NCBI RefSeq assembly: GCF_000021865.1
Contig: NC_014034.1
Span: forward strand, 3,540,001 to 3,572,000
Direction of reading: 5' to 3'
Source: Rhodobacter capsulatus SB 1003
Lineage (GTDB): Bacteria; Pseudomonadota; Alphaproteobacteria; Rhodobacterales; Rhodobacteraceae
Length of the DNA stretch: 32,000 nucleotides
Numbering within the stretch: position 1 is the stretch's first letter; each line of letters starts with the position of its first letter. The notes below the pieces were generated by a model. It did not search any database, was not told the origin of the DNA, and saw only the letters and a list, made by a program, of their open reading frames with translations. Of this stretch, positions 1,417-19,432 are shown in pieces. Made by a program: the position numbers and the translations under genes.

Positions 1417-2328
1417 ATGCCCTATCTGATCGGTTCCGATCATCCCGAGGCCCCGGCGGGGGCGCGGTTTCGCGCCGCCCTGGCCCGGCCCGGCATCCTG
1501 CGCCTGCCGGGCGCGCATAACGGCATGGCCGCGCTGCAGGCGAAAGCCGCGGGGTTTCAGGCGCTTTATCTGTCGGGCGCGGCGATGTCGGCCTCGATGG
1601 GCCTGCCGGACCTCGGCATCCTGACGGTGGACGAGGTCGCCTTTTTCATCCGCCAGATCACGCGGGCCTCGGGGCTGCCGCTTCTGGTCGATGGTGACAC
1701 CGGCTATGGCGAGGCGCTGAACGTCATGCACATGGTCCGGGTGTTCGAAGAGGCCGGGGCGGCGGCGGTGCATCTGGAAGACCAGCTTCTGCCGAAGAAA
1801 TGCGGCCATCTGAACGACAAGAAACTAGCAAGCCCGGCCGAGATGGCGGCCAAGGTCGCGGCGGCGGTGCGGGCACGGCGGCATCTGGTGGTGATCGCGC
1901 GGACCGATGCGGCGGCCGCCGAGGGGATCGAGGGGGCGGTGGCGCGGGCGCAGCTTTATGTCGAGGCGGGCGCCGATGCGATCTTCCCCGAGGCGCTGAC
2001 TTCGGTCGAGATGTTCCGCGCCTTCCGCGCCCGGCTGCCCGGGGTCAAGCTTCTGGCGAACATGACCGAATTCGGCCGCACCCCGGCCCTGACCGCGGCC
2101 GAGTTCGAGGAGCTGGGCTATCAGATGGTGATCTGGCCGGTGTCCTCCCTGCGGGTGGCGAACCGCGCGCAGGAACGGCTTTACGCCGCGCTTGCCCGCG
2201 ACGGCGCCACCACCGCGCTTCTGCCCGAGATGCAGACCCGGGCAGAGCTTTACGCGACGCTGGGCCTTGCGGCTTTCGAGGCGCTCGATGCCTCGATCGC
2301 GCAAAGCGTGCTGCCCACGACGGGTTGA
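1417..2328 (+). CDS. prpB: methylisocitrate lyase
   Basis: Isocitrate lyase/PEP mutase family motifs (LLVDGDTGYG, EDQLLPKKCGHL). A GGAG RBS precedes it, 3 nt after the prpC stop. Confidence 0.85.
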   Translation: MPYLIGSDHPEAPAGARFRAALARPGILRLPGAHNGMAALQAKAAGFQALYLSGAAMSASMGLPDLGILTVDEVAFFIRQITRASGLPLLVDGDTGYGEALNVMHMVRVFEEAGAAAVHLEDQLLPKKCGHLNDKKLASPAEMAAKVAAAVRARRHLVVIARTDAAAAEGIEGAVARAQLYVEAGADAIFPEALTSVEMFRAFRARLPGVKLLANMTEFGRTPALTAAEFEELGYQMVIWPVSSLRVANRAQERLYAALARDGATTALLPEMQTRAELYATLGLAAFEALDASIAQSVLPTTG

Positions 2329-2338
2329 AGGGGGGCGG

Positions 2339-3388
2339 TCAGATCTCGACCGCCACCTTGCCCGAAGGCCGCGAGCAGCAGGCGAGGATATAGCCCGCGG
2401 CGATATCGTCCTCGGAAATCCCGCCATTGTGCAGCATCTGCACCTCGCCCGCGGTTTTCTTCACCTTGCAGGTGCCGCAAAGGCCGAAGTTGCAGCCCGA
2501 GGGGATGTTCAGCCCCGCCCGTTTCGCCGCCGCCAGAACGGTTTCGCCCGGCGCGCAGGCGGTGCTGACCCCCGAGGCGGTGAAACGGATCTCGGCGGCC
2601 TCCGATGCCTCGGGCAGCGCTTCGGGCGCGGTCTCGGGCGGGCCGAAGCTTTCCTGATGATAGCGATTCATGTCGAAGCCCAGCGCCGCAAGGCTGTCCT
2701 TGACCCCGCGCATGAAGGGCTCGGGACCGCAGCAGAACACCTCGCGCTCCAGATAATCGGGCGCCATCAGCCCCAGCATGATCTGGTTCAGACGGCCGCG
2801 AAAGCCGTGCCAGACGCTGAAGGGCTCGACCTCCTCGACCGTGAAGCGCAGCTGCAAGCCGGGCACCCGCGCCGCGAATTGCTCGAGCCGCGGCCGGAAG
2901 ATGATGTCCGAGGGCCGCCGCGCCGCATGGACAAAGACGATATCGGGCATCTCGCCGCTGTCCCAGGCCCAGGTCGTCATCGACATCATCGGCGTGATCC
3001 CCGAGCCCGCCGAGATCAACAGATATTTCCGCGCCGGATGGCGGCGCAGGCTGAACTCGCCCGCGGGGCCGTGTGCCCGCAGCCGCATCCCCGGTTTCAG
3101 CTGCTCGATCAGCCAGCGCGAGCCCACCGACCCGGGCTGCGCCTTCACCGTCACCGAGAGCGACAAGGGCCGCGAGGGCGAGGAGGAGATCGTATAGGTC
3201 CGGCTGACCGGCTGACCCGGCACCGGCAGATCCAGCGTCAGGAACTGCCCGGGCAGGTAGTCGAACCACGCGCCCGAAGGCGCGCGGAAGGTGATCGTGG
3301 CGGTATCGGCGGTTTCGGGCACCACCATCGCGCATTCCAGCGGCTCGGCATCGCTCCATGGCGCGCTGGCCCAGTTGATCCGGTCCAT
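2339..3388 (-). CDS. FNR-type flavin/NAD(P)H reductase with C-terminal plant-type 2Fe-2S ferredoxin domain (GbcB-like oxygenase reductase)
   Basis: RTYTISSSP flavin motif, LLISAGSGITPMMSM nucleotide-binding motif, and a C-terminal CNFGLCGTC...C cluster motif. It starts 3 nt after the Rieske gene stop, with a GGAG RBS. Confidence 0.8.
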   Translation of the reverse strand: MDRINWASAPWSDAEPLECAMVVPETADTATITFRAPSGAWFDYLPGQFLTLDLPVPGQPVSRTYTISSSPSRPLSLSVTVKAQPGSVGSRWLIEQLKPGMRLRAHGPAGEFSLRRHPARKYLLISAGSGITPMMSMTTWAWDSGEMPDIVFVHAARRPSDIIFRPRLEQFAARVPGLQLRFTVEEVEPFSVWHGFRGRLNQIMLGLMAPDYLEREVFCCGPEPFMRGVKDSLAALGFDMNRYHQESFGPPETAPEALPEASEAAEIRFTASGVSTACAPGETVLAAAKRAGLNIPSGCNFGLCGTCKVKKTAGEVQMLHNGGISEDDIAAGYILACCSRPSGKVAVEI

Positions 3389-3391
3389 CGC

Positions 3392-4627
3392 TCACTCCGC
3401 CGCCAGCGGCGGGGCCAGCCGCGCATCCAATGTGCCGCAATACCAGTCGACGAACTGGATCACGCCCTCTTCCTGCAGCGTCGAATAGGGGCCGGGCTCA
3501 TAGGCGGGGGACAGAATCCCGGCCTGATTTTCCTCGACCACCTGCCGGTCCTCGTCATTCGTCGCCATCCAGACCTCGGTCAACTCGGTCAGGTCGTAAT
3601 CCACCCCCTCGACCGCATCGCCGGGGACAAGCCAGGTCGTCGTCACCTCGGTCTCGGTGGCCGAGATCGGCAGCACCCGGAAGACGATCGCATGATCGGC
3701 CAGGAAATGGTTCCAGGTGTTCGGATAATGGAAGAAAAGCAGGCTTCCGGCATCGTTGAAGGGCATCTCGCCCAGCCGTTTGCCCCGCACCGCGGCCTTG
3801 GTGCTCATGGTGTAGCTTTCAGCGCCGTTCAGCAGCGGAATGCGGGCCAGCCGCCATTGCATCTGCGGATGATGCACGAAGCGCGAGGGCAGACCCGCCG
3901 CCTCGCAGCGCGTCCAATGCGCCAGAATATCGGGGCTCGCCGCCTCGGGGCCCTCCATCGCGGTCATGCGCGGATTGTCGGAATAGGTCCGGCAGAGCGA
4001 GGGATGCGAGCCGCCGCAGTGATAGCATTCGCGGTTGTTCTCGATCACCAGCTTCCAGTTGCCCTTCTCGACGATGGTCGAGACATGGGCAACGCGCGCC
4101 TGTTTCAGCCCGGCAGGCGCCAGATAGCGGCCCAGCGTGCCCGCCAGATCGGCGATCGCGGGCGGCACCTCGGCCAGACAGATGAAGACCATGCCGCCGA
4201 TATCGACGCAATGGACCTTTTTCAGCCCATGCGCGGCGGGGTTGAAATCTTCCTGCATGTCCTTGGCCCAGAGCAGTTTTCCGTCCAGGTCATAGGTCCA
4301 TTGGTGATAGGGGCAGACAAGCTTCGGGCTGTTGCCCGTGGTCTTGGCGCAAAGCCGCTGGCCGCGATGGCGGCAGACGTTGTGAAAGGCGCGGATCATC
4401 CCGTCGGCGCCGCGCACCAGGATCACCGGATAGGCGCCCACCTGCAACGTCGCGTAATCGCCGGGCTTGACGAGCTGGCAGGCGGGAATGGCAAACAGCC
4501 ATTCGCGGTAAAAGACCTGCGTCAGATCGGTCTGAAAGATCCCCGGATCGCAATAAAAGGGTTGCGGCAGGGAATGGTCATTGCGCCGTGCGGCAAGCTG
4601 CGCACGGATGTCGGATGCGTCTGGCAT
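3392..4627 (-). CDS. Rieske 2Fe-2S non-heme-iron oxygenase alpha subunit (GbcA/Stc2-like N-demethylase class); substrate unknown
   Basis: Rieske motif CRHRG...CPYHQW and mononuclear-iron region ENNRECYHCGGSHP. I prefer ATG 4627 (GAGG 5 nt upstream). GTG 4633 is the alternative given in the ORF track. Confidence 0.8.
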   Translation of the reverse strand: MPDASDIRAQLAARRNDHSLPQPFYCDPGIFQTDLTQVFYREWLFAIPACQLVKPGDYATLQVGAYPVILVRGADGMIRAFHNVCRHRGQRLCAKTTGNSPKLVCPYHQWTYDLDGKLLWAKDMQEDFNPAAHGLKKVHCVDIGGMVFICLAEVPPAIADLAGTLGRYLAPAGLKQARVAHVSTIVEKGNWKLVIENNRECYHCGGSHPSLCRTYSDNPRMTAMEGPEAASPDILAHWTRCEAAGLPSRFVHHPQMQWRLARIPLLNGAESYTMSTKAAVRGKRLGEMPFNDAGSLLFFHYPNTWNHFLADHAIVFRVLPISATETEVTTTWLVPGDAVEGVDYDLTELTEVWMATNDEDRQVVEENQAGILSPAYEPGPYSTLQEEGVIQFVDWYCGTLDARLAPPLAAE

Positions 4628-4689
4628 CGGCACCTCACTTGCCCCTGCCTCCCCGCAAGGGCTGGTTGGATGGATGGGCCCGGGGGCCC

Positions 4690-4865
4690 GGCGGTCACAG
4701 GGCTGGTTTCCGGGCTTGCAATGCGTGCTTTCGCACCCGGGCGCAGCGCCTTCCCGAACCCCGGGGTCCAGTGGCCTTGCCGTCCCTCATTGCTGACCGT
4801 TGCGGGGGCAGCGCCGGTCTTGCACCGGCTTCCCAATTCTCCCGGCCTTGCGGACGGGCACCCTG
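4690..4865 (-). promoter_or_regulatory. cobalamin (AdoCbl-type) riboswitch upstream of the Rieske oxygenase operon
   Basis: Minus strand reads GGGAAGCCGGTGCAAGACCGGCGCTGCCCCCGCAACGGTCAGCA...GGCCACTGGACCCCGGGGTTCGGGAAGGCG...GCAAGCCCGGAAACCAGCC. The core, the GCCACTG element and a slightly variant B12 box are all present. The expression platform runs to the RBS at about 4634. Confidence 0.85.
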
Positions 4866-4888
4866 AGGCCTTCAGACTGACAGATTGT

Positions 4889-4939: not shown

Positions 4940-7662
<2,723 letters not shown>

Positions 7663-7666
<4 letters not shown>

Positions 7667-8700
7667 GGCAGGGCCCTCGGCGGGAAAGGTTTCACGGCTT
7701 CCGCGATGGCGCGGATGTGATCGGGGGTGGTGCCGCAGCAACCGCCCACGACATTGACCAGCCCTTCGCGGGCAAATTCGGCCACCTGCGCGGCGGTCCG
7801 GTCGGGGGTTTCGTCATATTGGCCAAAGGCATTGGGCAGCCCGGCATTGGGATAGGCGCAGATCGCGCAGGGGGCGACGCCCGCCAGTTCCGCCAGATGC
7901 GGACGCATCGCACTGGCGCCCAGCGCGCAGTTCAGCCCCACGGTAAAGGGCCGGGCATGAGCCACCGAATGCCAGAACGCGGTCGGCGTCTGCCCCGACA
8001 ATGTGCGCCCCGAGGCATCGGTGATCGTGCCGGAAATCATCACCGGCAGCCGCTCGCCCCGTTCGGCAAAGGCTTCGAAACAGGCGAAAATCGCCGCCTT
8101 GGCGTTCAGCGTGTCAAAGATCGTCTCGATCAGCAGGATATCGGCGCCCCCCGCGATCAGACCGCGCACCTGCTGGCCATAGGCCGTGCGCAGATCGTCG
8201 AAGGTGACGGCGCGAAAGCCCGGGTCGTTCACATCGGGCGAGAGCGAGGCGGTGCGGTTCGTCGGCCCCACCGCCCCCGCAACGAAGCGGCGCCGTCCGT
8301 CGGTGGCCTCGGCGCGGTCCATCGCCGCCCGCGCCACCCGCGCCCCCGCGGCGTTCAGGTCGAACACCGCGCTTTCCAGCCCGTAATCGGCCTGCGCGAT
8401 GGTGGTGGCCGAAAAGGTGTTCGTCTCGACGATATCCGCCCCCGCCATCGCATAGCGGAAATGGATCTCCTCGATCGCTTGCGGCTGGGTCAGCACCAGC
8501 AGGTCGTTGTTGCCCTTTTGCGGATGATCGGTGGCATGGCGGCAGGCGCAGCCCGAGCCGTGGCCCAGAAAATCGTCCTCGCTCAGGCCAAGCTGCTGGA
8601 TCTGCGTGCCCATCGCCCCGTCAAGGATCAAGATCCGCTGGCGCGAAAGCGCCTCAATTGCGGCAAAGGCCGCAGATCGGGGCAGGGTCTGGGTCAGCAT
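7663..8700 (-). CDS. metH: methionine synthase, homocysteine-binding (S-methyltransferase) domain as a separate ORF
   Basis: [13 protein letters not shown] and [11 protein letters not shown] (Zn/Hcy domain). ATG 8700 is preceded by GAGGGAG. The ORF ends in the linker that is continuous in fused MetH proteins. Confidence 0.85.
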
Positions 8701-8754
8701 GGCAATCTCCCTCGGGTGGAAGGCAGATAGGCCACAAGTCACCTTTCAGCAAAT

Positions 8755-8778
8755 TCATAATCATCAGGATAATTATGA
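8755..8778. promoter_or_regulatory. 24-bp near-perfect palindrome, candidate operator in the metH promoter region
   Basis: TCATAATCATC-AG-GATAATTATGA, with 10 of 11 arm positions complementary. It sits in the only AT-rich patch here, 55-78 nt upstream of the metH ATG. Confidence 0.5.
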
Positions 8779-8809
8779 GTTCGCTCATGTCCCCATCGGA
8801 CTGCGGCCG

Positions 8810-10264
8810 CTACCGCGCCAGATCCAGAAGCGCATCAAGGTCCAGATCGGCTTCGATTTCCGCAGCAAAAGCATCAAGGGCGGCCCCGATCCGGGCATCA
8901 TGGTCCTGCACGGCGGCGGTGACGCCCAGCTGCGCCAGCCAATGGCCGCGAAAGCCCGCGGCGCCGAAAATCCCGTGCAGATAGCTGCCCATCACCTTGC
9001 CATCGGCAGAGATCGCCCCCTCGGGCCGCCCGTCAAGGGTCAGCCACGGCCGCGCCAGATCGGGGCCGAAGCTCTCGCCCATATGCATCTCGTAGCCCTG
9101 CACGCGGGCACCGCTGAGGCTGTCCCGCGCGTCGATCCTGGCCAGCCGTTTCCTTGGCCCGATCATCGTTTCCAGATCGAGAAGCCCCAGCCCCGGGGTT
9201 TCGCCGGGCGGGCCCTCGATCCCCTCCGGGTCGCGCACGACGCGGCCAAGCATCTGAAACCCCGCGCAAATACCCACGACGCGCCCGCCCCGGCGCAGAT
9301 GCGCGCGGATATCGATGTCCCAGCCCTCGGCGCGCAGCGCGATGAGCGCGGCCCGGGTGGCCTTGGAGCCGGGCAGGATCACCACCGCCGCCTCGGCCGG
9401 GATCGGCTGACCGGGGCGGACCCAGCGCAGATCGACGCCCGGCTCGGCCGCCAGCGGGTCGAGATCGTCGAAATTCGCCACCCGCGGCAGGTCGGGCACC
9501 GCCACGACAAGCGCCCCCGCCGTGCCGCGCTTGCGCGCGACCCCGAGCGAGTCTTCCTCGGGCAGGCGCCTTGCCGCCTCGGACCAGCGCATCAGCCCCA
9601 GCACCGGCCAGCCGGTCTCGGCGCGGATATCGGCGGCGGCGGGGGCAAAGATCGCCGGATCGCCGCGGAATTTCGTCACGATCACGCCGCCCACCCGGGC
9701 GCGTTCGGAAGCGGTCCAAAGGTGATGATGCCCGATCACCGCCGCCGTCACCCCGCCGCGCGATTCGTCGCCCAGAAGCAGCACCGGCAGATCCGCGGCC
9801 TCGGCCAGACCCATGTTCGAAATGTCCTGCGGGCGCAGGTAGCGTTCGGCGCCGCTGCCCGCCCCCTCGATCAGCACCAGATCATGGCTGGCCGAGAGGT
9901 GATCCAGGCTCTCGATCACCTGCCCCCGCAGGCCGGGTTTCAGCGCCTGATAGTCGGCGGCGGAAAAGCGGCCCAAAACCTGCCCCTGCACCACCACCTG
10001 CGCATCGACATCGCTGTCGGGCTTGAGCAGAACCGGGTTCATGTGGACGGACAGGGGAACCCCCGCCGCCCGCGCCTGCAACGCCTGCGCCCGGCCGATC
10101 TCGCCGCCATCCGCCGTCACCGCCGCGTTGTTCGACATGTTCTGCGCCTTGAAGGGCGCCACCTTCAGGCCGCGCCGGGTGAAGGCCCGCGCCAGCCCCG
10201 CGACGAACAGGCTTTTCCCCACATCCGAGCCGGTGCCCAGCACCATCAGCCGCCGCGCCGTCAT
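8810..10264 (-). CDS. cobQ: cobyric acid synthase (copy 1, canonical N-terminus)
   Basis: MTARRLMVLGTGSDVGKS N-terminal ATPase domain. C-terminal GATase1 domain with GICAGFQMLG and YLHGIFG. The start overlaps the upstream paralog's stop as ATGA. Confidence 0.9.
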   Translation of the reverse strand: MTARRLMVLGTGSDVGKSLFVAGLARAFTRRGLKVAPFKAQNMSNNAAVTADGGEIGRAQALQARAAGVPLSVHMNPVLLKPDSDVDAQVVVQGQVLGRFSAADYQALKPGLRGQVIESLDHLSASHDLVLIEGAGSGAERYLRPQDISNMGLAEAADLPVLLLGDESRGGVTAAVIGHHHLWTASERARVGGVIVTKFRGDPAIFAPAAADIRAETGWPVLGLMRWSEAARRLPEEDSLGVARKRGTAGALVVAVPDLPRVANFDDLDPLAAEPGVDLRWVRPGQPIPAEAAVVILPGSKATRAALIALRAEGWDIDIRAHLRRGGRVVGICAGFQMLGRVVRDPEGIEGPPGETPGLGLLDLETMIGPRKRLARIDARDSLSGARVQGYEMHMGESFGPDLARPWLTLDGRPEGAISADGKVMGSYLHGIFGAAGFRGHWLAQLGVTAAVQDHDARIGAALDAFAAEIEADLDLDALLDLAR

Positions 10265-11835
10265 TTCGCCAGCGCCAGCAGCGCGTCCAGATCGAGGTCC
10301 TGCTCCAGCTGATCGGCCAGAGCGTCAAGCGTCGTCTCGATCTGCGCGGCGTGATCGAGGCCCGAGGCCCGCCCGCCCATCGCGGTGATCCAATGGCCGC
10401 GAAAGCCGTCGGCGCCAAAAAGCCCGTGCAGATAGGTCCCCATCACCCGGCCATCATGCGACACCGCCCCCTCGGGGCGGCCGTCAAGCCGGAACCACGG
10501 CTGCGCAAGCCCCGGCCCGGTGGTGCGGCCCATATGCATCTCGTAGCCCGTCAGACCGTGACCGCTGACCGCATCGGTCGCCTGCACCTCGGTCAGCATC
10601 TTGTCGCGCGTCATCACGGTTTCCAGATCGAGCAGCCCCAGCCCCTCGGTCTCGCCCGCCGGGCCCTCGATCCCTTCGGGATCGCGCACGACATGGCCAA
10701 GCATCTGAAACCCCGCGCAAATCCCGACAACGCGGCCGCCGCGGCGCAGATGCGCGCGGATGTCCACATCCCAGCCCTGCGCGCGCAGCGTGGCCAGCGC
10801 GGCGCGGGTGGTTTTTGATCCCGGCAACAGCACCACATCGGCCTCGGGCGGGATCGGCTGGCCATGGCGGACCCAGCGCAGATCGACGCCCGGCTCGGCG
10901 CCCAGGGGATCAAGGTCGTCGAAATTCGCCACGCCATCGAGATGCGGCACGGCGACGATCAGCCCCGCGCCGTTGCCCGTCGCGGGACGCTCCAGCGCCA
11001 GCGCATCCTCGGCCGGCAGCTGCCCCGCCGCCTCGAACCAGCGCGCGACGCCCAGGAAGGGCCAGCCGGTGATCTCGGTCATGGTCCGGCAGGCCGGTTC
11101 GTAAAGCGAGAAATAGCCGCGGAACTTGTTGACCAGAATACCTTTCACCCGCGCCCGCTCGGCGTCGTCATGCAGCATCCAGCTGCCGACGACAGCGGCC
11201 AGCGCCCCGCCGCGGTCGTTGTCGGTCAGCAGAACCACCGGCAGATCGGCCTCTTCGGCCAGACGCATGTTGGTGATGTCGCAATGCTTGATCCAGGTCT
11301 CGGTCGCCGCCCCCGCGCCTTCGACCAGCACCAGATCGGCCTCGGCGGCGACGCGGCGGTAGCTGTCCATCACCGCGGGCAGCAGGAAGGGTTTCAGATG
11401 GTGGTAATGCCGCGCGGGCCAGTTGCCCAGCGCCCGGCCGCGCAGCACCACCTGCGAGCCGACCAGCGCCTGCGGCTTGAGCAGAACCGGGTTCATGTGG
11501 ATCGAGGGCGCCACCCCGGCGGCGCGGGCCTGCAGCGCCTGTGCCCGGCCGATCTCGCCGCGCCGGGGCTGGCCGTCGGGGCCGGGGGGCAGGTCGCTGT
11601 CCACGGTGACGGCGGCATTGTTCGACATGTTCTGCGCCTTGAACGGCGCCACCTTCAGCCCGCGCCTTGCATAGGCGCGGGCCAGCCCGGCAACGAGCAG
11701 GCTTTTGCCGACATCGGAACTGGTGCCCTGGATCATCAGCGCCCGGCCGCGCCGCGGCGGCGGCGGGGTCAGCAACGGCAGGTCAAGATCGGGCAGCGGC
11801 GGCACCGGATCGTGGTCGGGAAGCGAGAGGGTCAT
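10261..11835 (-). CDS. cobQ: cobyric acid synthase paralog (copy 2) with Pro-rich N-terminal extension and an internal insertion
   Basis: MIQGTSSDVGKS, GICAGFQMLG and YLHGLFG are retained. Start ATG 11835 is tentative; TTG about 11775 or ATG 11736 are possible. The 622-aa track ORF start is rejected. Confidence 0.8.
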   Translation of the reverse strand: MTLSLPDHDPVPPLPDLDLPLLTPPPPRRGRALMIQGTSSDVGKSLLVAGLARAYARRGLKVAPFKAQNMSNNAAVTVDSDLPPGPDGQPRRGEIGRAQALQARAAGVAPSIHMNPVLLKPQALVGSQVVLRGRALGNWPARHYHHLKPFLLPAVMDSYRRVAAEADLVLVEGAGAATETWIKHCDITNMRLAEEADLPVVLLTDNDRGGALAAVVGSWMLHDDAERARVKGILVNKFRGYFSLYEPACRTMTEITGWPFLGVARWFEAAGQLPAEDALALERPATGNGAGLIVAVPHLDGVANFDDLDPLGAEPGVDLRWVRHGQPIPPEADVVLLPGSKTTRAALATLRAQGWDVDIRAHLRRGGRVVGICAGFQMLGHVVRDPEGIEGPAGETEGLGLLDLETVMTRDKMLTEVQATDAVSGHGLTGYEMHMGRTTGPGLAQPWFRLDGRPEGAVSHDGRVMGTYLHGLFGADGFRGHWITAMGGRASGLDHAAQIETTLDALADQLEQDLDLDALLALAK

Positions 11836-11905
11836 GGCAGCATCCGTTCGGTCGGCAGGCAAGGACGGCGCCGGGGCAGCCCCGGCACCGGAAGGTTCGG
11901 CGGGA

Positions 11906-12253
11906 TCAGTGCAGCAGGCCCGGCCCGGCGGTGATCTCGGCGGCGGCGCGCAAGGGGGCGGCCGGGTCCGGGTCAAGCAGCGCCGCCACCGGCACCTCGG
12001 GGGCGACATCGCCCCAAAGCCGGGCGCCCGCGGGCGTGGCCCACCAGACCACCGGGCAAAGCCTTGTGCCGCAACACAGGCTGGCGGAGCCGCTGATGTC
12101 GAAATCCGCCCCCACCGGCGCCAGCGCAAGCGCCTGGCACAGCCGGTTCAGAAAGACGAGGCCGGGGCGGCAGGGCGCATCGGCATGGCGGCAGGTGCTG
12201 CAGCCCAGCACCCGATAGGGGGACAGGCCGGGCGGGGATCCTCCGTCAGCCAT
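11906..12253 (-). CDS. DUF1636-like small Cys-rich (predicted metal-binding/ferredoxin-like) protein
   Basis: 115 aa starting MADGGSPPGL..., with CSTC and LCCGTRLCP cysteine clusters, as in DUF1636 proteins found in cob clusters. It is the first gene after the riboswitch. The longer track ORF would run through the riboswitch. Confidence 0.6.
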   Translation of the reverse strand: MADGGSPPGLSPYRVLGCSTCRHADAPCRPGLVFLNRLCQALALAPVGADFDISGSASLCCGTRLCPVVWWATPAGARLWGDVAPEVPVAALLDPDPAAPLRAAAEITAGPGLLH

Positions 12254-12724: not shown

Positions 12725-12892
12725 ATTGGTTCCCCGTTCATGCGGGGATGAAAAGGGAATGCGGTGCGCCGAACGGCAAACCCGCAGCTGCCCCCGCAAC
12801 TGTAAGCGGCGAGCGACGGTCGAAGATGCCACTGGGGATGCCCCGGGAAGGCCGACCCGAGCCCGGACCCGCAAGCCAGGAGACCTGCCACC
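12725..12892 (+). promoter_or_regulatory. cobalamin riboswitch upstream of the DUF4198-like gene
   Basis: AAAAGGGAATGCGGTG...CCCGCAGCTGCCCCCGCAACTGTAAGCGG...ATGCCACTGGGGATGCCCCGGGAAGGCCGAC...GCAAGCCAGGAGACCTGCC. Confidence 0.92.
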
Positions 12893-13043
12893 CCCCGGGC
12901 CAAGGCCCGGTTTCACCGGACGCCGGGGTGCGCGTCTGGCCCCCGGGGCCCGGCTTTCTGCCCGGCCCTCCGGGGCCACATCCCTTCGTCCTTTCGCGTC
13001 TTGCGGCCGGTTGCCCCGGACCGCGCCCCGGAAGGAAACGACC

Positions 13044-13940
13044 ATGTTCTTGCACGGAAACCTGATGGCCGCCGCCCGCGCGCTGCTGTCGATCCCCCGC
13101 CCCGCCACGCCGGGGCTGATGGCGCATCTGCCCGAGACGGGCGGCGTCCTGACCCTTGCCCTCGGCGATCCTTTGGGCGGCGGCGCGGTGCTTGACCTTG
13201 CCGCGCCGCTTGCGGTGTTTCACCAGCACGGCGCCCGCCGCACCGATCTGACCTCCGGGCTGACGGCGGATCTGCTGCAGGGCGCGGGCAATGCCGCGCG
13301 CGCCTGGCGGACCCGGGTCGATCTGTCGGCGCCGGGGCTGCACCGGATCCACGCCGAGGCCCCGGTCGGGCGCGATCCCGAGGGCCGCGGGCTGGTGCAG
13401 CATGCGGCCGCCTGTTTCGTCCTGCGCGGCGCCGCGACCGCCACCCCCGAGCCGCTTGGCCTCGCCGTCGAGATCCTGCCCGACCTGCTCTCGCCCGGGT
13501 TCCTGCCCGGGATGCGGTTTTCGGCGCGGGTGCTGGCGCAGGGGCATCCGCTGACGGCGACGACGGTGCATCTGGAACGGGTCGGGGCGGAACCCGTCGG
13601 CACGCAGGTGCAAGCCCTGCCCGACCACGGGGCGCCGCTCTGGATCGTCGCCGAAACCGACCGCGAGGGCCGGTTCCGGGTCTCGCTGCCCGCGCCCGGG
13701 CTTTGGGCGATCACCGCGACGGGGCCGATCGGCTGGTCCGGGCTGCGGCCGGTGCGACATGTCACCACGCTTTGGCAGCGCTTCGGCAGCCCGGGCCAGG
13801 GCACGGGAAAGGAGAGCGAAGCCCTTGCAATGGCTTGGGAAACCGCCGCCGTCCGGCCCCCTCACCGCGAAGCCGCCGTGCCGGGGGAGGTCGCCCCGGT
13901 GCCGGCGCCCGAACCGCGGCCGCGGGAAAGCACCGCTTGA
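13044..13940 (+). CDS. DUF4198-like protein (family linked to TonB-dependent Ni/Co uptake), function unknown
   Basis: ATG 13044 follows GGAAGGAAA. The pattern LGLAVEILPD...GMRFSARVLAQGHPL...ETDREGRFRVSLPAPGLWAITA matches the Ig-like DUF4198 architecture. The tail is Pro/Glu-rich and the signal peptide is weak. Confidence 0.55.
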   Translation: MFLHGNLMAAARALLSIPRPATPGLMAHLPETGGVLTLALGDPLGGGAVLDLAAPLAVFHQHGARRTDLTSGLTADLLQGAGNAARAWRTRVDLSAPGLHRIHAEAPVGRDPEGRGLVQHAAACFVLRGAATATPEPLGLAVEILPDLLSPGFLPGMRFSARVLAQGHPLTATTVHLERVGAEPVGTQVQALPDHGAPLWIVAETDREGRFRVSLPAPGLWAITATGPIGWSGLRPVRHVTTLWQRFGSPGQGTGKESEALAMAWETAAVRPPHREAAVPGEVAPVPAPEPRPRESTA

Positions 13941-13959: not shown

Positions 13960-14140
13960 TTGGTTGTGTCCCGTCCAAGTTCCGGCCTGCGGGTCGGATT
14001 GAAAGGGAACACGGAACGGCCCCCGGGCCCAGACCGTGGCTGCCCCCGCAACTGTGAGCGGCGAGCGACGTCGACATGCCACTGGGATTTCCCGGGAAGG
14101 CCGACGAAGCGAAGACCCGTGAGCCAGGAGACCTGCTTGG
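13960..14140 (+). promoter_or_regulatory. cobalamin riboswitch upstream of btuB
   Basis: TTGAAAGGGAACACGG...GTGGCTGCCCCCGCAACTGTGAGCGG...ATGCCACTGGGATTTCCCGGGAAGGCCGAC...GTGAGCCAGGAGACCTGC. Confidence 0.92.
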
Positions 14141-14279
14141 ACGATCACCCACCCGGGCGCGAGGGGCGCCACGGGAGCGGTCTGTCCGCAGAGGTGAGCT
14201 GTCGCCGTCTGCGGAAAGCCCAGCTTTTCCGTGACATCTCTCATGCCGGGCCGTCTTGCCCGAACCGAAGGTCTGTCCG

Positions 14280-18018: not shown

Positions 18019-18749
18019 GCCTGATGCGACTGGACAATCTGACGGTGCAGCGGGGCGGGCGGGTCAGCCTGCATCCGGCCAGCCTGCAGGCGGCCCCGGG
18101 CGAGTTCATCGGCCTGATCGGTCCGAACGGCGCGGGGAAATCGACGCTTCTGCGCGCGGCACTGGGGCTGATCGCGGCGCGGGGCCAATCCTCGCTGGCG
18201 CAGCTGTCGCCGCGCGCCCGCGCCCGCGCCGCCGCCTGGCTGCCGCAGCAGCGCGAGATCGCCTGGGGGCTGCGCGTCGCGGCGCTGGTGGCGCTGGCGC
18301 AAAACGGGCGCGAGGATGCGCCGCAGGTCGCCGCCGCCCTGGCGCGGATGGATGTGACGGCGCTGGCGCAGCGCCCGGCCACGGCGCTTTCGGGCGGCGA
18401 ACAGGCGCGGGTGCTGATCGCCCGGGCGCTGGCGCAGGACACTCCACTTCTCTTGGCCGACGAGCCGATCGCGGGCCTTGACCCGGCGCATCAGATCGCC
18501 TGCATGGCGCTTTTCGCCAGCCTTGCCGCCGAGGGCCGCACGGTGATCGCCTCGGCGCATGATCTGGGGCTGGCGGCGCGGCATTGCACCCGGCTTTGGG
18601 TGCTGCATCAGGGCCGGATCGTTGCCGACGGCCCGCCGCGCGCCGTGCTGACCCCCGCGCTTTTGCGCGAGGTCTTCGCCATCCGCTGCCATCTGGCCGA
18701 GGCCGAGGGCGGGCTGATCGTGCAACCTCTGGCCGGGCTTGCGCCATGA
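18015..18749 (+). CDS. btuD: ABC transporter ATPase
   Basis: Walker A GPNGAGKST, signature LSGGEQ, Walker B LLLADEP. ATGA overlap with btuC. Confidence 0.85.
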   Translation: MSLMRLDNLTVQRGGRVSLHPASLQAAPGEFIGLIGPNGAGKSTLLRAALGLIAARGQSSLAQLSPRARARAAAWLPQQREIAWGLRVAALVALAQNGREDAPQVAAALARMDVTALAQRPATALSGGEQARVLIARALAQDTPLLLADEPIAGLDPAHQIACMALFASLAAEGRTVIASAHDLGLAARHCTRLWVLHQGRIVADGPPRAVLTPALLREVFAIRCHLAEAEGGLIVQPLAGLAP

Positions 18750-19432
18750 CGCCGCTGCAGGTCCGGCTGCAGCCGCCCTGGCTGGTCGTCGATCTGGGGG
18801 CGCCGCTGCAGGTCCTGTCCTTTGCGCCGCACCGGCCCGGTCTGGTCACCGCGCGCCAGATCGTCTGGCGCGAAGTGCGCAACGCCGATCTGCCGCCGGG
18901 GCTGGATGTCGGGCCGTGGTTTGCCGCCGTGCTGGCCGAGCGCGGGCTGCAGGATGCGGTGGCGATGCTGACCTCGCGCGATATCCGTCGCGTCACCCGC
19001 GCCAGCTGCACCGTGGCGGACTGGACGGTGGAGGTGCTGGCAACGGTGGGGCTGGGCAATGCGGAAGCGGTCGGGCACCGCCTGCCGCCGCGCGACCCTG
19101 AGGCCGCGGGCTATGGCACGATCAACCTGGCGCTGCGGATCGCCTCCACCCTGCCCGGCCACGGCCTGACGGTAGCCGCGCAGATCGAGGCGCTGAGCCT
19201 TGTGGCGCAGGCGCGCACGGCGGCGGTGATGGCGGTGGGGCTTGATCTGCCCACCGGCCGCGCCACCGGCACCGGCACCGACTGCATCGCCATCGCCGCA
19301 AGCCCGGGCCGTGAAGCCCATGCCGGGCTGCACACCGCGCTTGGCGAGGCGATCGGCCACGCCGTCCTGCAGGCCGTTGGCTGCGGCGCCCGCGACTGGA
19401 TGGAAGAAAACCGGCGGCCCTGCGCCGGATAG
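18746..19432 (+). CDS. cbiZ: adenosylcobinamide amidohydrolase
   Basis: 228 aa starting MTPLQVRLQPPWLVVDL..., with GTINLAL and TGTGTDCIAIA, typical of CbiZ. ATGA overlap with btuD. The 282-aa track ORF start is rejected. Confidence 0.8.
   Translation: MTPLQVRLQPPWLVVDLGAPLQVLSFAPHRPGLVTARQIVWREVRNADLPPGLDVGPWFAAVLAERGLQDAVAMLTSRDIRRVTRASCTVADWTVEVLATVGLGNAEAVGHRLPPRDPEAAGYGTINLALRIASTLPGHGLTVAAQIEALSLVAQARTAAVMAVGLDLPTGRATGTGTDCIAIAASPGREAHAGLHTALGEAIGHAVLQAVGCGARDWMEENRRPCAG

Follow-up and report, generated by a model that had tools for sequence, protein, structure and literature searches.

Cobyric acid synthase, CobQ in Pseudomonas denitrificans and CbiP in Salmonella enterica, is usually viewed as one enzyme that performs four ordered amidations, and in the genomes of these canonical systems a single enzyme is described for all four. 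In contrast, Rhodobacter capsulatus SB 1003 has two differentiated paralogues, cobQ2 and cobQ3, besides a further gene, cobQ1. We analyzed this pair in a stretch of 32,000 nucleotides of that genome (contig NC_014034.1, positions 3,540,001 to 3,572,000; hereinafter the window, with positions counted from its first letter). We posit, at a probability of roughly 0.55, that cobQ3 and cobQ2 encode a differentiated, co-operating amidotransferase pair, which would divide corrinoid substrates or side chains between its members, be accessory to cobQ1 and respond to low B12.

Both genes lie on the reverse strand. The upstream cobQ3 (copy B; rcc03355) occupies 10261–11835 and codes for 524 aa from an ATG at 11835, while the downstream cobQ2 (copy A; rcc03354) occupies 8810–10264 and codes for 484 aa; the open reading frame (ORF) coordinates place the cobQ3 stop (10263–10261) and the cobQ2 start (10264–10262) in a shared ATGA at 10261–10264. 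The names are those of Table S5 of PMC5643017, in which the gene order of the window corresponds to rcc03348–rcc03371 of SB1003: prpC, prpB, a ferredoxin reductase, a Rieske protein, metH2, metH1, cobQ2, cobQ3, two hypotheticals, a TonB receptor, an ABC transporter, cbiZ and bioB. CobQ2 shares 99% identity with an R. capsulatus protein. The two proteins of the window are 63% identical and both exceed the cutoffs of the NCBIfam equivalogs NF001989 (CobQ2 580.3 bits, CobQ3 584.8; cutoff 273) and TIGR00313 (382.9 and 396.0 bits; cutoff 309.9). Each combines an N-terminal amidoligase matching PF01656 (CbiA) and PF13500 (AAA_26) with a following glutamine amidotransferase (GATase) domain, PF07685 (GATase_3). 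The P-loop GxxxxVGKS (G37, T38, D41–S45) and the glutaminase residues C373 and H470 are invariant in 61 members of the clade described below, including both copies. Thus, two observations made from the letters alone by a first-pass annotation, namely full-length cobQ genes arranged head to tail with an ATGA overlap and the retention of the P-loop and GATase Cys/His motifs in both, are borne out. The ratios of nonsynonymous to synonymous rates (dN/dS) against three orthologues, 0.16–0.21 for cobQ2 and 0.13–0.21 for cobQ3, indicate that both genes are under purifying selection.

To place the copies among their relatives, we used the 120 best relatives per copy together with the 80 best-listed loci from a scan of a genome collection; trees were constructed by neighbor-joining (NJ) with a simple distance correction and 100 bootstrap replicates, and rooted on distant CobQs. 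Both copies fall into a phototroph CobQ clade with a bootstrap of 100/100. All named sources of the relatives of copy B (61–96% identity) are purple phototrophic proteobacteria except one, a 2-kb contig labelled Candidatus Falkowbacteria, and those of copy A are likewise purple phototrophs. The clade spans alphaproteobacteria (Rhodobacter, Rhodovulum, Cereibacter, Rhodobium, Rhodothalassium, Rhodospirillum, Rhodopseudomonas, Blastochloris, Rhodomicrobium and others), betaproteobacteria (Rhodocyclus and Rubrivivax) and gammaproteobacteria (Chromatiaceae and Ectothiorhodospiraceae). Among the matches listed by tblastn in the genome collection, the best 12 loci (59–72%) are all phototrophs and the 13th falls to 53%, with the non-phototrophic Rhodobacterales genus Pseudophaeobacter at 52%; among the same matches, the next-best relatives beyond the clade reach at most 53% by tblastn and at most 56% over the alignment.

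Within the clade, the full-length tree separates an A-type (91/100), to which cobQ2 belongs, from a B-type (100/100), to which cobQ3 belongs. Both types are present in Rhodobacter spp., Rhodovulum spp., Cereibacter, Fuscovulum, Rhodobium, Rhodothalassium, Roseibacterium, Phaeovulum, Rubrivivax, Rhodocyclus, Rhodospirillum rubrum, Thioalkalicoccus, Thioflavicoccus and Ectothiorhodospira sp. PHS-1. The order is B-then-A at every tandem locus that was read, i.e., eight loci besides the window: two of Rhodobacter (L087 and L088) and one each of Cereibacter (L082), R. rubrum (L081), Rubrivivax (L012), Rhodocyclus (L086), Ectothiorhodospira (L089) and, probably, Rhodoferax, where both genes are on the same contig. 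The 4-nt overlap of the cobQ3/cobQ2 kind recurs at locus L088 of Rhodobacter maris and at L087 of a metagenomic Rhodobacter relative. The distribution of the two types indicates that the duplication is ancient and common to the alpha, beta and gamma purple phototrophs. A recent or strain-specific duplication, which the first-pass annotation had named as an observation that would tell against its proposal of divided work, is ruled out by this phylogeny of the paralogs, which covers three proteobacterial classes, and by a proportion of synonymous differences (pS) of about 0.48 between the copies. At the Rhodocyclus purpureus locus, a family-less ORF of 65 aa (L086 10632–10829) lies between the B- and A-type genes and has a counterpart in no other locus examined.

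The likeness of the two copies is markedly uneven. Sliding amino acid identity, numbered by copy A, is 0.73–0.93 over residues 1–75, 0.40–0.63 over residues 76–255 and 0.77–0.93 over residues 256–360. At the DNA level, a repeat search finds the GATase-core stretch of cobQ2 (9162–9461, reverse strand) to be 84% identical over 300 nt to 10613–10912 in cobQ3; pS is 0.30–0.40 over this stretch as against 0.5–0.64 in the synthetase core. These pairwise measurements support the earlier impression, gained by eye, that the glutaminase halves are closer than the synthetase halves and that the DNA is particularly alike around 9170–9330 and 10610–10780. The two domains also differ in their history: in an NJ tree of the synthetase core (residues 76–250 of copy A) the A-type and the B-type are recovered with bootstraps of 99 and 98, respectively, while in a tree of the GATase domain (256–440) the monophyly of each type receives 0/100. 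In the latter tree, the A- and B-types of Rhodobacterales cluster together by lineage, apart from the beta- and gammaproteobacterial A-types. Consistent with this, A–B identity in the synthetase core is 0.53 both within and between genomes, compared to 0.74 for A–A and 0.77 for B–B, while over GATase residues 256–360 it is 0.73–0.76 against an A–A value of 0.74.

Several species additionally show traces of local exchange. Over residues 361–440, within-genome A–B identity exceeds between-genome A–B identity in several of them (0.88 versus 0.69 in Rhodocyclus; 0.78 versus 0.63 in Rhodothalassium), and sliding pS dips from baselines of 0.45–0.55 to 0.14–0.22 in the GATase core of R. rubrum, 0.13–0.20 in the P-loop region of Ectothiorhodospira and 0.20–0.29 in the GATase domain of Rhodocyclus. 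In R. capsulatus, the minimum anywhere is about 0.3, and no recent gene-conversion tract is seen in this organism itself. Because the GATase halves group by lineage and pS dips locally in several species, gene conversion between A and B appears to have taken place; we read these patterns as episodic conversion of the conserved N-terminal and glutaminase parts between neighbouring paralogues, with the synthetase cores held apart by selection. Accordingly, the suggestion that gene conversion made the GATase halves alike gains support from the non-monophyly of the types in that domain and from the dips, and so does the idea that the copies differ chiefly in the synthetase half, a difference that is old and maintained and fits a split of the work by substrate or side chain.

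We next consider the residues by which the types differ, with canonical synthetase motifs (EGAGSPAE-x-NL, DIDRGG and KFRGD) taken from empirical conservation in 67 outgroup CobQs rather than from a curated definition. Neither copy matches these motifs in full. The Asn of AEINL, present in 67/67 outgroup CobQs, is replaced by Tyr, or by His or Trp, in the clade (Tyr in R. capsulatus A, Trp in B), and the Pro of EGAGSPAE becomes Gly across the clade, a feature absent from the 67 outgroup CobQs. Two further elements are likewise missing from all 67: an N-terminal extension ending in PRRxR, and a 12-aa insertion with the consensus DLPPGPDGxPxR between the invariant NMSNNAAV and GEIGRAQ. In cobQ3, the Pro-rich extension covers residues 1–33 (...PPLPDLDLPLLTPPPPRRGR; 11737–11835, reverse strand), with a GC content at third codon positions (GC3) of 0.85 and a per-residue model confidence (predicted local distance difference test, pLDDT) of 83–87 over residues 11–30; its motif PPLPxIxVPxLxPxPPRRxR is conserved in the B-types of several genera. 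The insertion, 12–13 aa in length, is SDLPPGPDGQPRR at residues 80–92 of cobQ3 (11560–11598, reverse strand); it is present in most B-type and in basal A-type proteins and missing from most Rhodobacterales A-types, and cobQ2 has neither element. As extension and insertion are both found in the B-types and in the basal A-types (those of gammaproteobacteria and R. rubrum), this distribution marks them as ancestral features of the clade that the Rhodobacterales A-type has lost.

The A-type is marked by AE(R/A)YLR, by D(E/D)SRGG in place of DIDRGG (DESRGG in cobQ2) and by KFRGDP. The B-types form two groups along a trend: the first (Rhodopseudomonas palustris, Chromatiaceae, Ectothiorhodospira and R. 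rubrum) retains SGAE, D(I/L)D(R/K)GG and KFRGD, while the second (Rhodobacterales, Rhodobium, Rhodothalassium, Rubrivivax and Rhodocyclus) shows xxTE, DNDRGG and, in many cases, KFRG(Y/Q/H); the latter group forms a tight B–A tandem wherever the locus is readable. CobQ3 of R. capsulatus, with AATETW, DNDRGG and KFRGY (i.e., SGAE to AATE, DIDRGG to DNDRGG and KFRGD to KFRGY), stands at the far end of this trend. Thus, the extension, insertion and altered motifs ascribed at first pass to the upstream copy are real, but its casting as the altered copy does not hold, since the extension and insertion are ancestral and copy A has also changed, as in its DESRGG. An AlphaFold model of CobQ3 (pLDDT 89.3; predicted template modelling score, pTM, 0.89) is predicted to fold as an amidoligase joined to a class I GATase. 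A sequence search of the PDB returned no CobQ structure, and hence the type-specific residues cannot be placed relative to the corrin.

The cobQ unit is headed by a full-length cobalamin riboswitch (RF00174; 12426–12612, reverse strand; 130.4 bits against a gathering threshold of 31.5), which lies 173 nt upstream of a small ORF that precedes cobQ3. Directly downstream of cobQ2 are metH1 (7663–8742) and metH2 (4940–7741), both on the reverse strand and matching NCBIfam metH models, which together make up a split B12-dependent methionine synthase. The 67-nt gap between cobQ2 and metH1 contains no terminator-like site, and metH1–metH2 are possibly part of the cobQ transcription unit. Of the single riboswitch-led operon that had been proposed, the riboswitch is confirmed, whereas co-transcription is something we infer. 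Expression in R. capsulatus sets the pair apart from cobQ1 (rcc02051), which is flanked by cobO and bluB within the main cob cluster (PMC5643017 Table S5). From aerobic to photosynthetic growth, reads go from 799 to 175 for cobQ2 (log2 fold change −2.1) and from 634 to 144 for cobQ3 (−1.98), as compared to 752 and 709 for cobQ1 (−0.08, not significant); metH1, metH2 and a Rieske/reductase gene pair of the window fall in parallel with cobQ2 and cobQ3, metH about 4-fold like the pair (all PMC5643017 Table S5). Since cobQ1 is present in the main cob cluster, the pair is accessory and not the only CobQ of the cell. Riboswitch control of the pair recurs in Cereibacter sphaeroides.

Taken together, we propose that cobQ3 and cobQ2 constitute a conserved module of two genes, old and confined to the purple phototrophs among the Proteobacteria, in which each enzyme would be an ATP-dependent amidoligase fused to a glutaminase and both proteins most likely act jointly on corrinoid side-chain carboxylates. 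The glutaminase halves would be interchangeable in function and repeatedly homogenised by gene conversion, while the synthetase halves are predicted to bind ATP and corrinoid and to be kept distinct by selection. It is because the synthetase halves are kept distinct while the glutaminase halves are homogenised that we favor a division of work by substrate form or side chain over redundancy. As the pair sits behind a cobalamin riboswitch, presumably one of OFF logic, it would be expressed at low adenosylcobalamin (AdoCbl) together with MetH.

Several points weigh against this proposal. The function put forward for CobQ2 and CobQ3 is a prediction, and the trees are NJ trees with a sample limited to the best 120 matches per copy and the loci listed by the genome scan. 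Only a B-type gene was seen in Rps. palustris and in most of the Chromatiaceae loci sampled, and B is therefore apparently functional without A. Moreover, A and B are unlinked in some gammaproteobacteria (Thioalkalicoccus), and in Thioflavicoccus they are separated by 9 kb. That expression falls during phototrophic growth is unexpected for a phototrophy-linked function; the fall was measured in rich medium and may reflect riboswitch repression rather than need. One R. capsulatus cobQ, which one not being stated, suffices for B12 synthesis in engineered Escherichia coli. In favor of the proposal, on the other hand, RSP_0796, the single modelled cobyric acid synthase of R. sphaeroides, is essential by transposon sequencing (Tn-seq) in both growth modes; the species group carries the pair, and this essentiality would argue against simple redundancy, subject to the CobQ type to which RSP_0796 belongs.

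In phototrophs other than R. capsulatus, the clade has notable genomic neighbours. Neighbours were counted in the first 18 phototroph loci (L001–L012 and L081–L086) and 68 outgroup loci: bchE is found within 10 kb of the clade cobQ in 9/18 of the former and 0/68 of the latter. These neighbouring bchE products share 70–77% identity with the BchE of R. rubrum, which itself reaches 803 bits on the BchE equivalog. R. rubrum and four Chromatiaceae loci (L001, L002, L009 and L010) have the gene directly upstream of the B-type one, and in Rhodocyclus the two are divergent; in Ectothiorhodospira (L089), a BchE-sized B12-binding radical S-adenosylmethionine (radical-SAM) gene has the same upstream position. 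A gene for a Cys-rich "zf-like" PF04071 protein of about 115 aa occurs within 10 kb in 11/18 phototroph loci, and also in L089, as compared to 0/68 outgroup loci. Split cobZ-like genes of the tcuA/tcuB kind, which match NCBIfam CobZ_N-term and CitB, come directly after the A-type gene in three loci of gammaproteobacteria (L083 9588–12117, L089 10557–13084 and L090 10533–13155); they overlap it in L089 and L090 and are 6 nt apart from it in L083. In Ectothiorhodospira sp. PHS-1 the resulting order is zf-like, then, after intervening sequence, the BchE-like radical-SAM gene, cobQB, cobQA, cobZ(N) and cobZ(C), and this array adjoins corrin-ring methylases, cbiJ and cbiC. A metH gene follows cobQ in two Chromatiales loci (L001 and L006) as in the window, and the cobQ of Rps. 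palustris has a riboswitch some 4 kb upstream, with cobT and cobS in between.

Further observations concern these neighbours themselves. The PF04071 genes (L081 5042–5389; L082 11177–11554, reverse strand; L085 596–946; L084 5222–5548, reverse strand; L089 437–775; also in L004–L009 and L012) encode proteins that are 57–81% identical across alpha, beta and gamma purple bacteria, and the gene comes right behind a cobalamin riboswitch of its own in C. sphaeroides (L082 11644–11831) and Rps. palustris (L005 9123–9327; L007 6650–6856). The two tcuA/tcuB-like products together look like a split version of R. capsulatus CobZ. In the Chromatiales loci the metH is a single fused gene, while metH1 and metH2 of the window are two ORFs, read in different frames, with an overlap of 79 nt. 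The bchE of Rhodoblastus sphagnicola (L008 2548–4179, forward strand) has a cobalamin riboswitch (2075–2269, forward strand) directly upstream, which is odd for a B12-dependent enzyme. In the metagenomic Rhodobacter relative (locus L087 3242–7737; B 96% and A 92% identical), the pair has no metH behind it; the genes that come next encode a response regulator of the AraC type, a histidine kinase with a PocR domain, a radical-SAM activase, a bacterial microcompartment (BMC) shell protein and an aldehyde dehydrogenase, i.e., a microcompartment-type locus. A HEARO RNA (RF02033, 111 bits) is found near the cobQ of Halorhodospira abdelmalekii (L011 4459–4686, reverse strand).

Other readings of the pair have to be weighed against a division of work. 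A tentative one is a heterodimer of CobQ3 with CobQ2, obligate or preferred, whose two active sites would not be equivalent. CobQ of P. denitrificans is homodimeric, and the related dethiobiotin synthetase uses the equivalent loop to bind its substrate across the dimer interface. The motifs of the tight-tandem lineages are compatible with such an arrangement, in that A lacks the second Asp of DIDRGG and has KFRGD, while B has DxD and often lacks the Asp of KFRGD; the fixed gene order, the ATGA overlap in three Rhodobacter loci (the window, L087 and L088) and the similar transcript levels of cobQ2 and cobQ3 speak in the same direction, but the occurrence of B without A in several genera and the separated genes of Thioalkalicoccus and Thioflavicoccus do not. 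A narrower version of our favored proposal, which we consider rather unlikely, holds that the phototroph-clade CobQs accept corrinoids without an adenosyl ligand or cobalt, for example converting HBAD (the a,c-diamide of hydrogenobyrinic acid) to hydrogenobyric acid; this would provide an amidation route independent of light-labile adenosylated intermediates and account for the cobalt-free corrinoids of purple bacteria. Purple sulfur bacteria without cobalt do make such corrinoids, up to hydrogenobalamin in Chromatium vinosum, and a cobQ from "a purple sulfur bacterium" turns metal-free HBAD into hydrogenobyric acid in E. coli (PMC6771967), although that study names neither gene nor organism and its link to this clade is putative. 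The clade-wide replacement of the AEINL Asn would also fit, as would the insertion, which falls between a pair of invariant motifs at the putative substrate site, and the A-type genes that abut or overlap cobZ-like late-cobalt-insertion genes in the three gammaproteobacterial loci; however, the structure searches gave no substrate-bound CobQ by which to place these motif changes at the cobalt or adenosyl site, and green sulfur bacteria, which also live in the light and use BchE, have ordinary CobQs (L058, L059, L070 and L072; among the matches listed). Distinctly unlikely, in our estimate, is the most far-reaching form of this idea, a dedicated and possibly heterodimeric amidation branch for cobalt-free or non-adenosylated corrins wired to BchE and the CobZ late-cobalt route. 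Were it true, it would give an enzymatic origin to the cobalt-free corrinoids reported from purple bacteria since 1965 and would allow B12 to be built in the light without photolabile adenosylated intermediates.

The two least supported readings, both of which we hold to be improbable, are corrinoid salvage and plain redundancy. Under the former, the pair would re-amidate incompletely amidated or deamidated corrinoids that are imported by BtuB–BtuFCD and processed by CbiZ. In the window, the pair indeed lies 2 kb from a riboswitch-controlled btuB–btuFCD–cbiZ unit (CbiZ at 18584–19432) and both units are B12-regulated, but the other 20 phototroph loci examined have no such transporter or CbiZ link, their neighbours being bchE, PF04071, cobZ-like, cobT/cobS, corrin-ring genes and metH. 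Thus, the first-pass annotation was right about the nearness of CbiZ, whereas the association on which its suggestion of salvaged corrinoids drew is local to this genome. By its Pfam name, moreover, CbiZ is an adenosylcobinamide amidohydrolase; its product, adenosylcobyric acid, is already fully amidated, which also counts against salvage. Under redundancy, the null hypothesis, the pair would simply raise the dosage of CobQ activity, the two copies being functionally equal to cobQ1 and to each other. The two copies do score alike on the CobQ equivalogs and keep all catalytic motifs. Nevertheless, the pair is conserved over three classes of proteobacteria, its synthetase cores have stayed type-specific even though the other half recombines, both copies are under purifying selection, their regulation is unlike that of cobQ1, and RSP_0796 is essential although its species group has the pair. 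A division of work between co-operating paralogues thus continues to be the reading that we favor.

The small ORF between the riboswitch and cobQ3 (rcc03356, hypothetical; 11906–12253, reverse strand) encodes a Cys-containing protein of 115 aa. It looks coding from its GC3 of 0.86, which is like that of the adjoining genes, and from the identity of its homologues (56–90%), only 12 in number, all Rhodobacter-like and none with a Pfam domain; its read counts are low (60 aerobic, 36 photosynthetic; PMC5643017 Table S5). This ORF had been called a DUF1636 gene, an assignment that falls away: neither its short nor its long version has a Pfam match at E ≤ 1 or any NCBIfam match, and only a resemblance in Cys pattern to DUF1636 (PF07845) is left. 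It is also rejected as a PF04071 protein (BLASTP E = 19 against that of R. rubrum and 0.48 against that of C. sphaeroides), and tblastn finds no PF04071 gene in the window. The gap between cobQ2 and metH1 contains, at about 8768–8791 read on the reverse strand, an AT-rich imperfect inverted repeat, TCATAATTATC-ct-GATGATTATGA, in a genome of 69% GC; it could be an operator or promoter element.

The window has four cobalamin riboswitches inside 10 kb. Besides that of the cobQ unit, one (4684–4880, reverse strand) is placed ahead of a Rieske oxygenase (3392–4633) and a ferredoxin reductase (2339–3388), both on the reverse strand, which resemble the glycine betaine monooxygenase GbcA/GbcB with scores under the curated cutoffs. 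This pair falls about 6-fold from aerobic to photosynthetic growth (PMC5643017 Table S5) and may represent a B12-independent demethylation route that is repressed by B12. Another riboswitch (12727–12890, forward strand) is divergent from the cobQ unit and is followed by a DUF4198-domain ORF (about 12990–13940, forward strand; Pfam E = 2e-15), and the remaining one (13960–14154) heads btuB–btuFCD–cbiZ.

What is known already is the annotation of the genes as cobQ2 and cobQ3. Literature searches on these names, on paralogous cobQ and on cobQ beside bchE returned only mycobacterial and Lactobacillus naming and nothing on the pair, no published assay of cobQ2 or cobQ3 was found, and the paper characterising BchE has nothing on its neighbouring genes. 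In the searchable literature we found no description of the purple-phototroph restriction, the two types, their domain-mosaic evolution or the linkage to bchE, PF04071 and cobZ-like genes. Given that CobQ is generally treated as one enzyme, the pair offers a natural experiment on side-chain and substrate specificity. Its restriction to purple phototrophs, taken with its linkage to bchE, cobZ-like genes and metH, suggests a branch of B12 supply tied to anoxygenic photosynthesis, and the searchable papers describe no such branch. Moreover, the pair supplies candidate genes for the long-unexplained cobalt-free corrinoids of purple bacteria, compounds that are useful for preparing metal-substituted B12 analogues.

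In terms of fold, the nearest relatives of the CobQ3 model in a structure search are GatD, CTP synthase and dethiobiotin synthetase, at 10–20% identity: the model shares the glutaminase fold of GatD, the partner of MurT, and the amidoligase fold of dethiobiotin synthetase and CTP synthase, and at this distance their substrate contacts are not transferable. Closer in biology is the cobQ behind hydrogenobyric acid (Kieninger et al. 2019, PMC6771967), of unnamed gene and species, which amidates a cobalt-free corrin and originates from a group of bacteria in which B-type, and often also A-type, genes occur. With CobQ of P. denitrificans and CbiP of S. enterica, both copies share the two-domain architecture, the equivalogs, the P-loop, EGAG, DI(S/T)NM, KFRG and the Cys and His of the GATase, while the clade has as its own the Tyr, Trp or His for the AEINL Asn, the Pro to Gly change in GSPAE and, mostly, the 12-aa insertion and the N-terminal extension. 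The cobQ1 of R. capsulatus has the same annotated function in the same organism, but does not appear within the 120 best relatives listed for each copy (identities down to about 60%), and its expression is steady between aerobic and photosynthetic growth, whereas that of cobQ2 and cobQ3 falls 4-fold.

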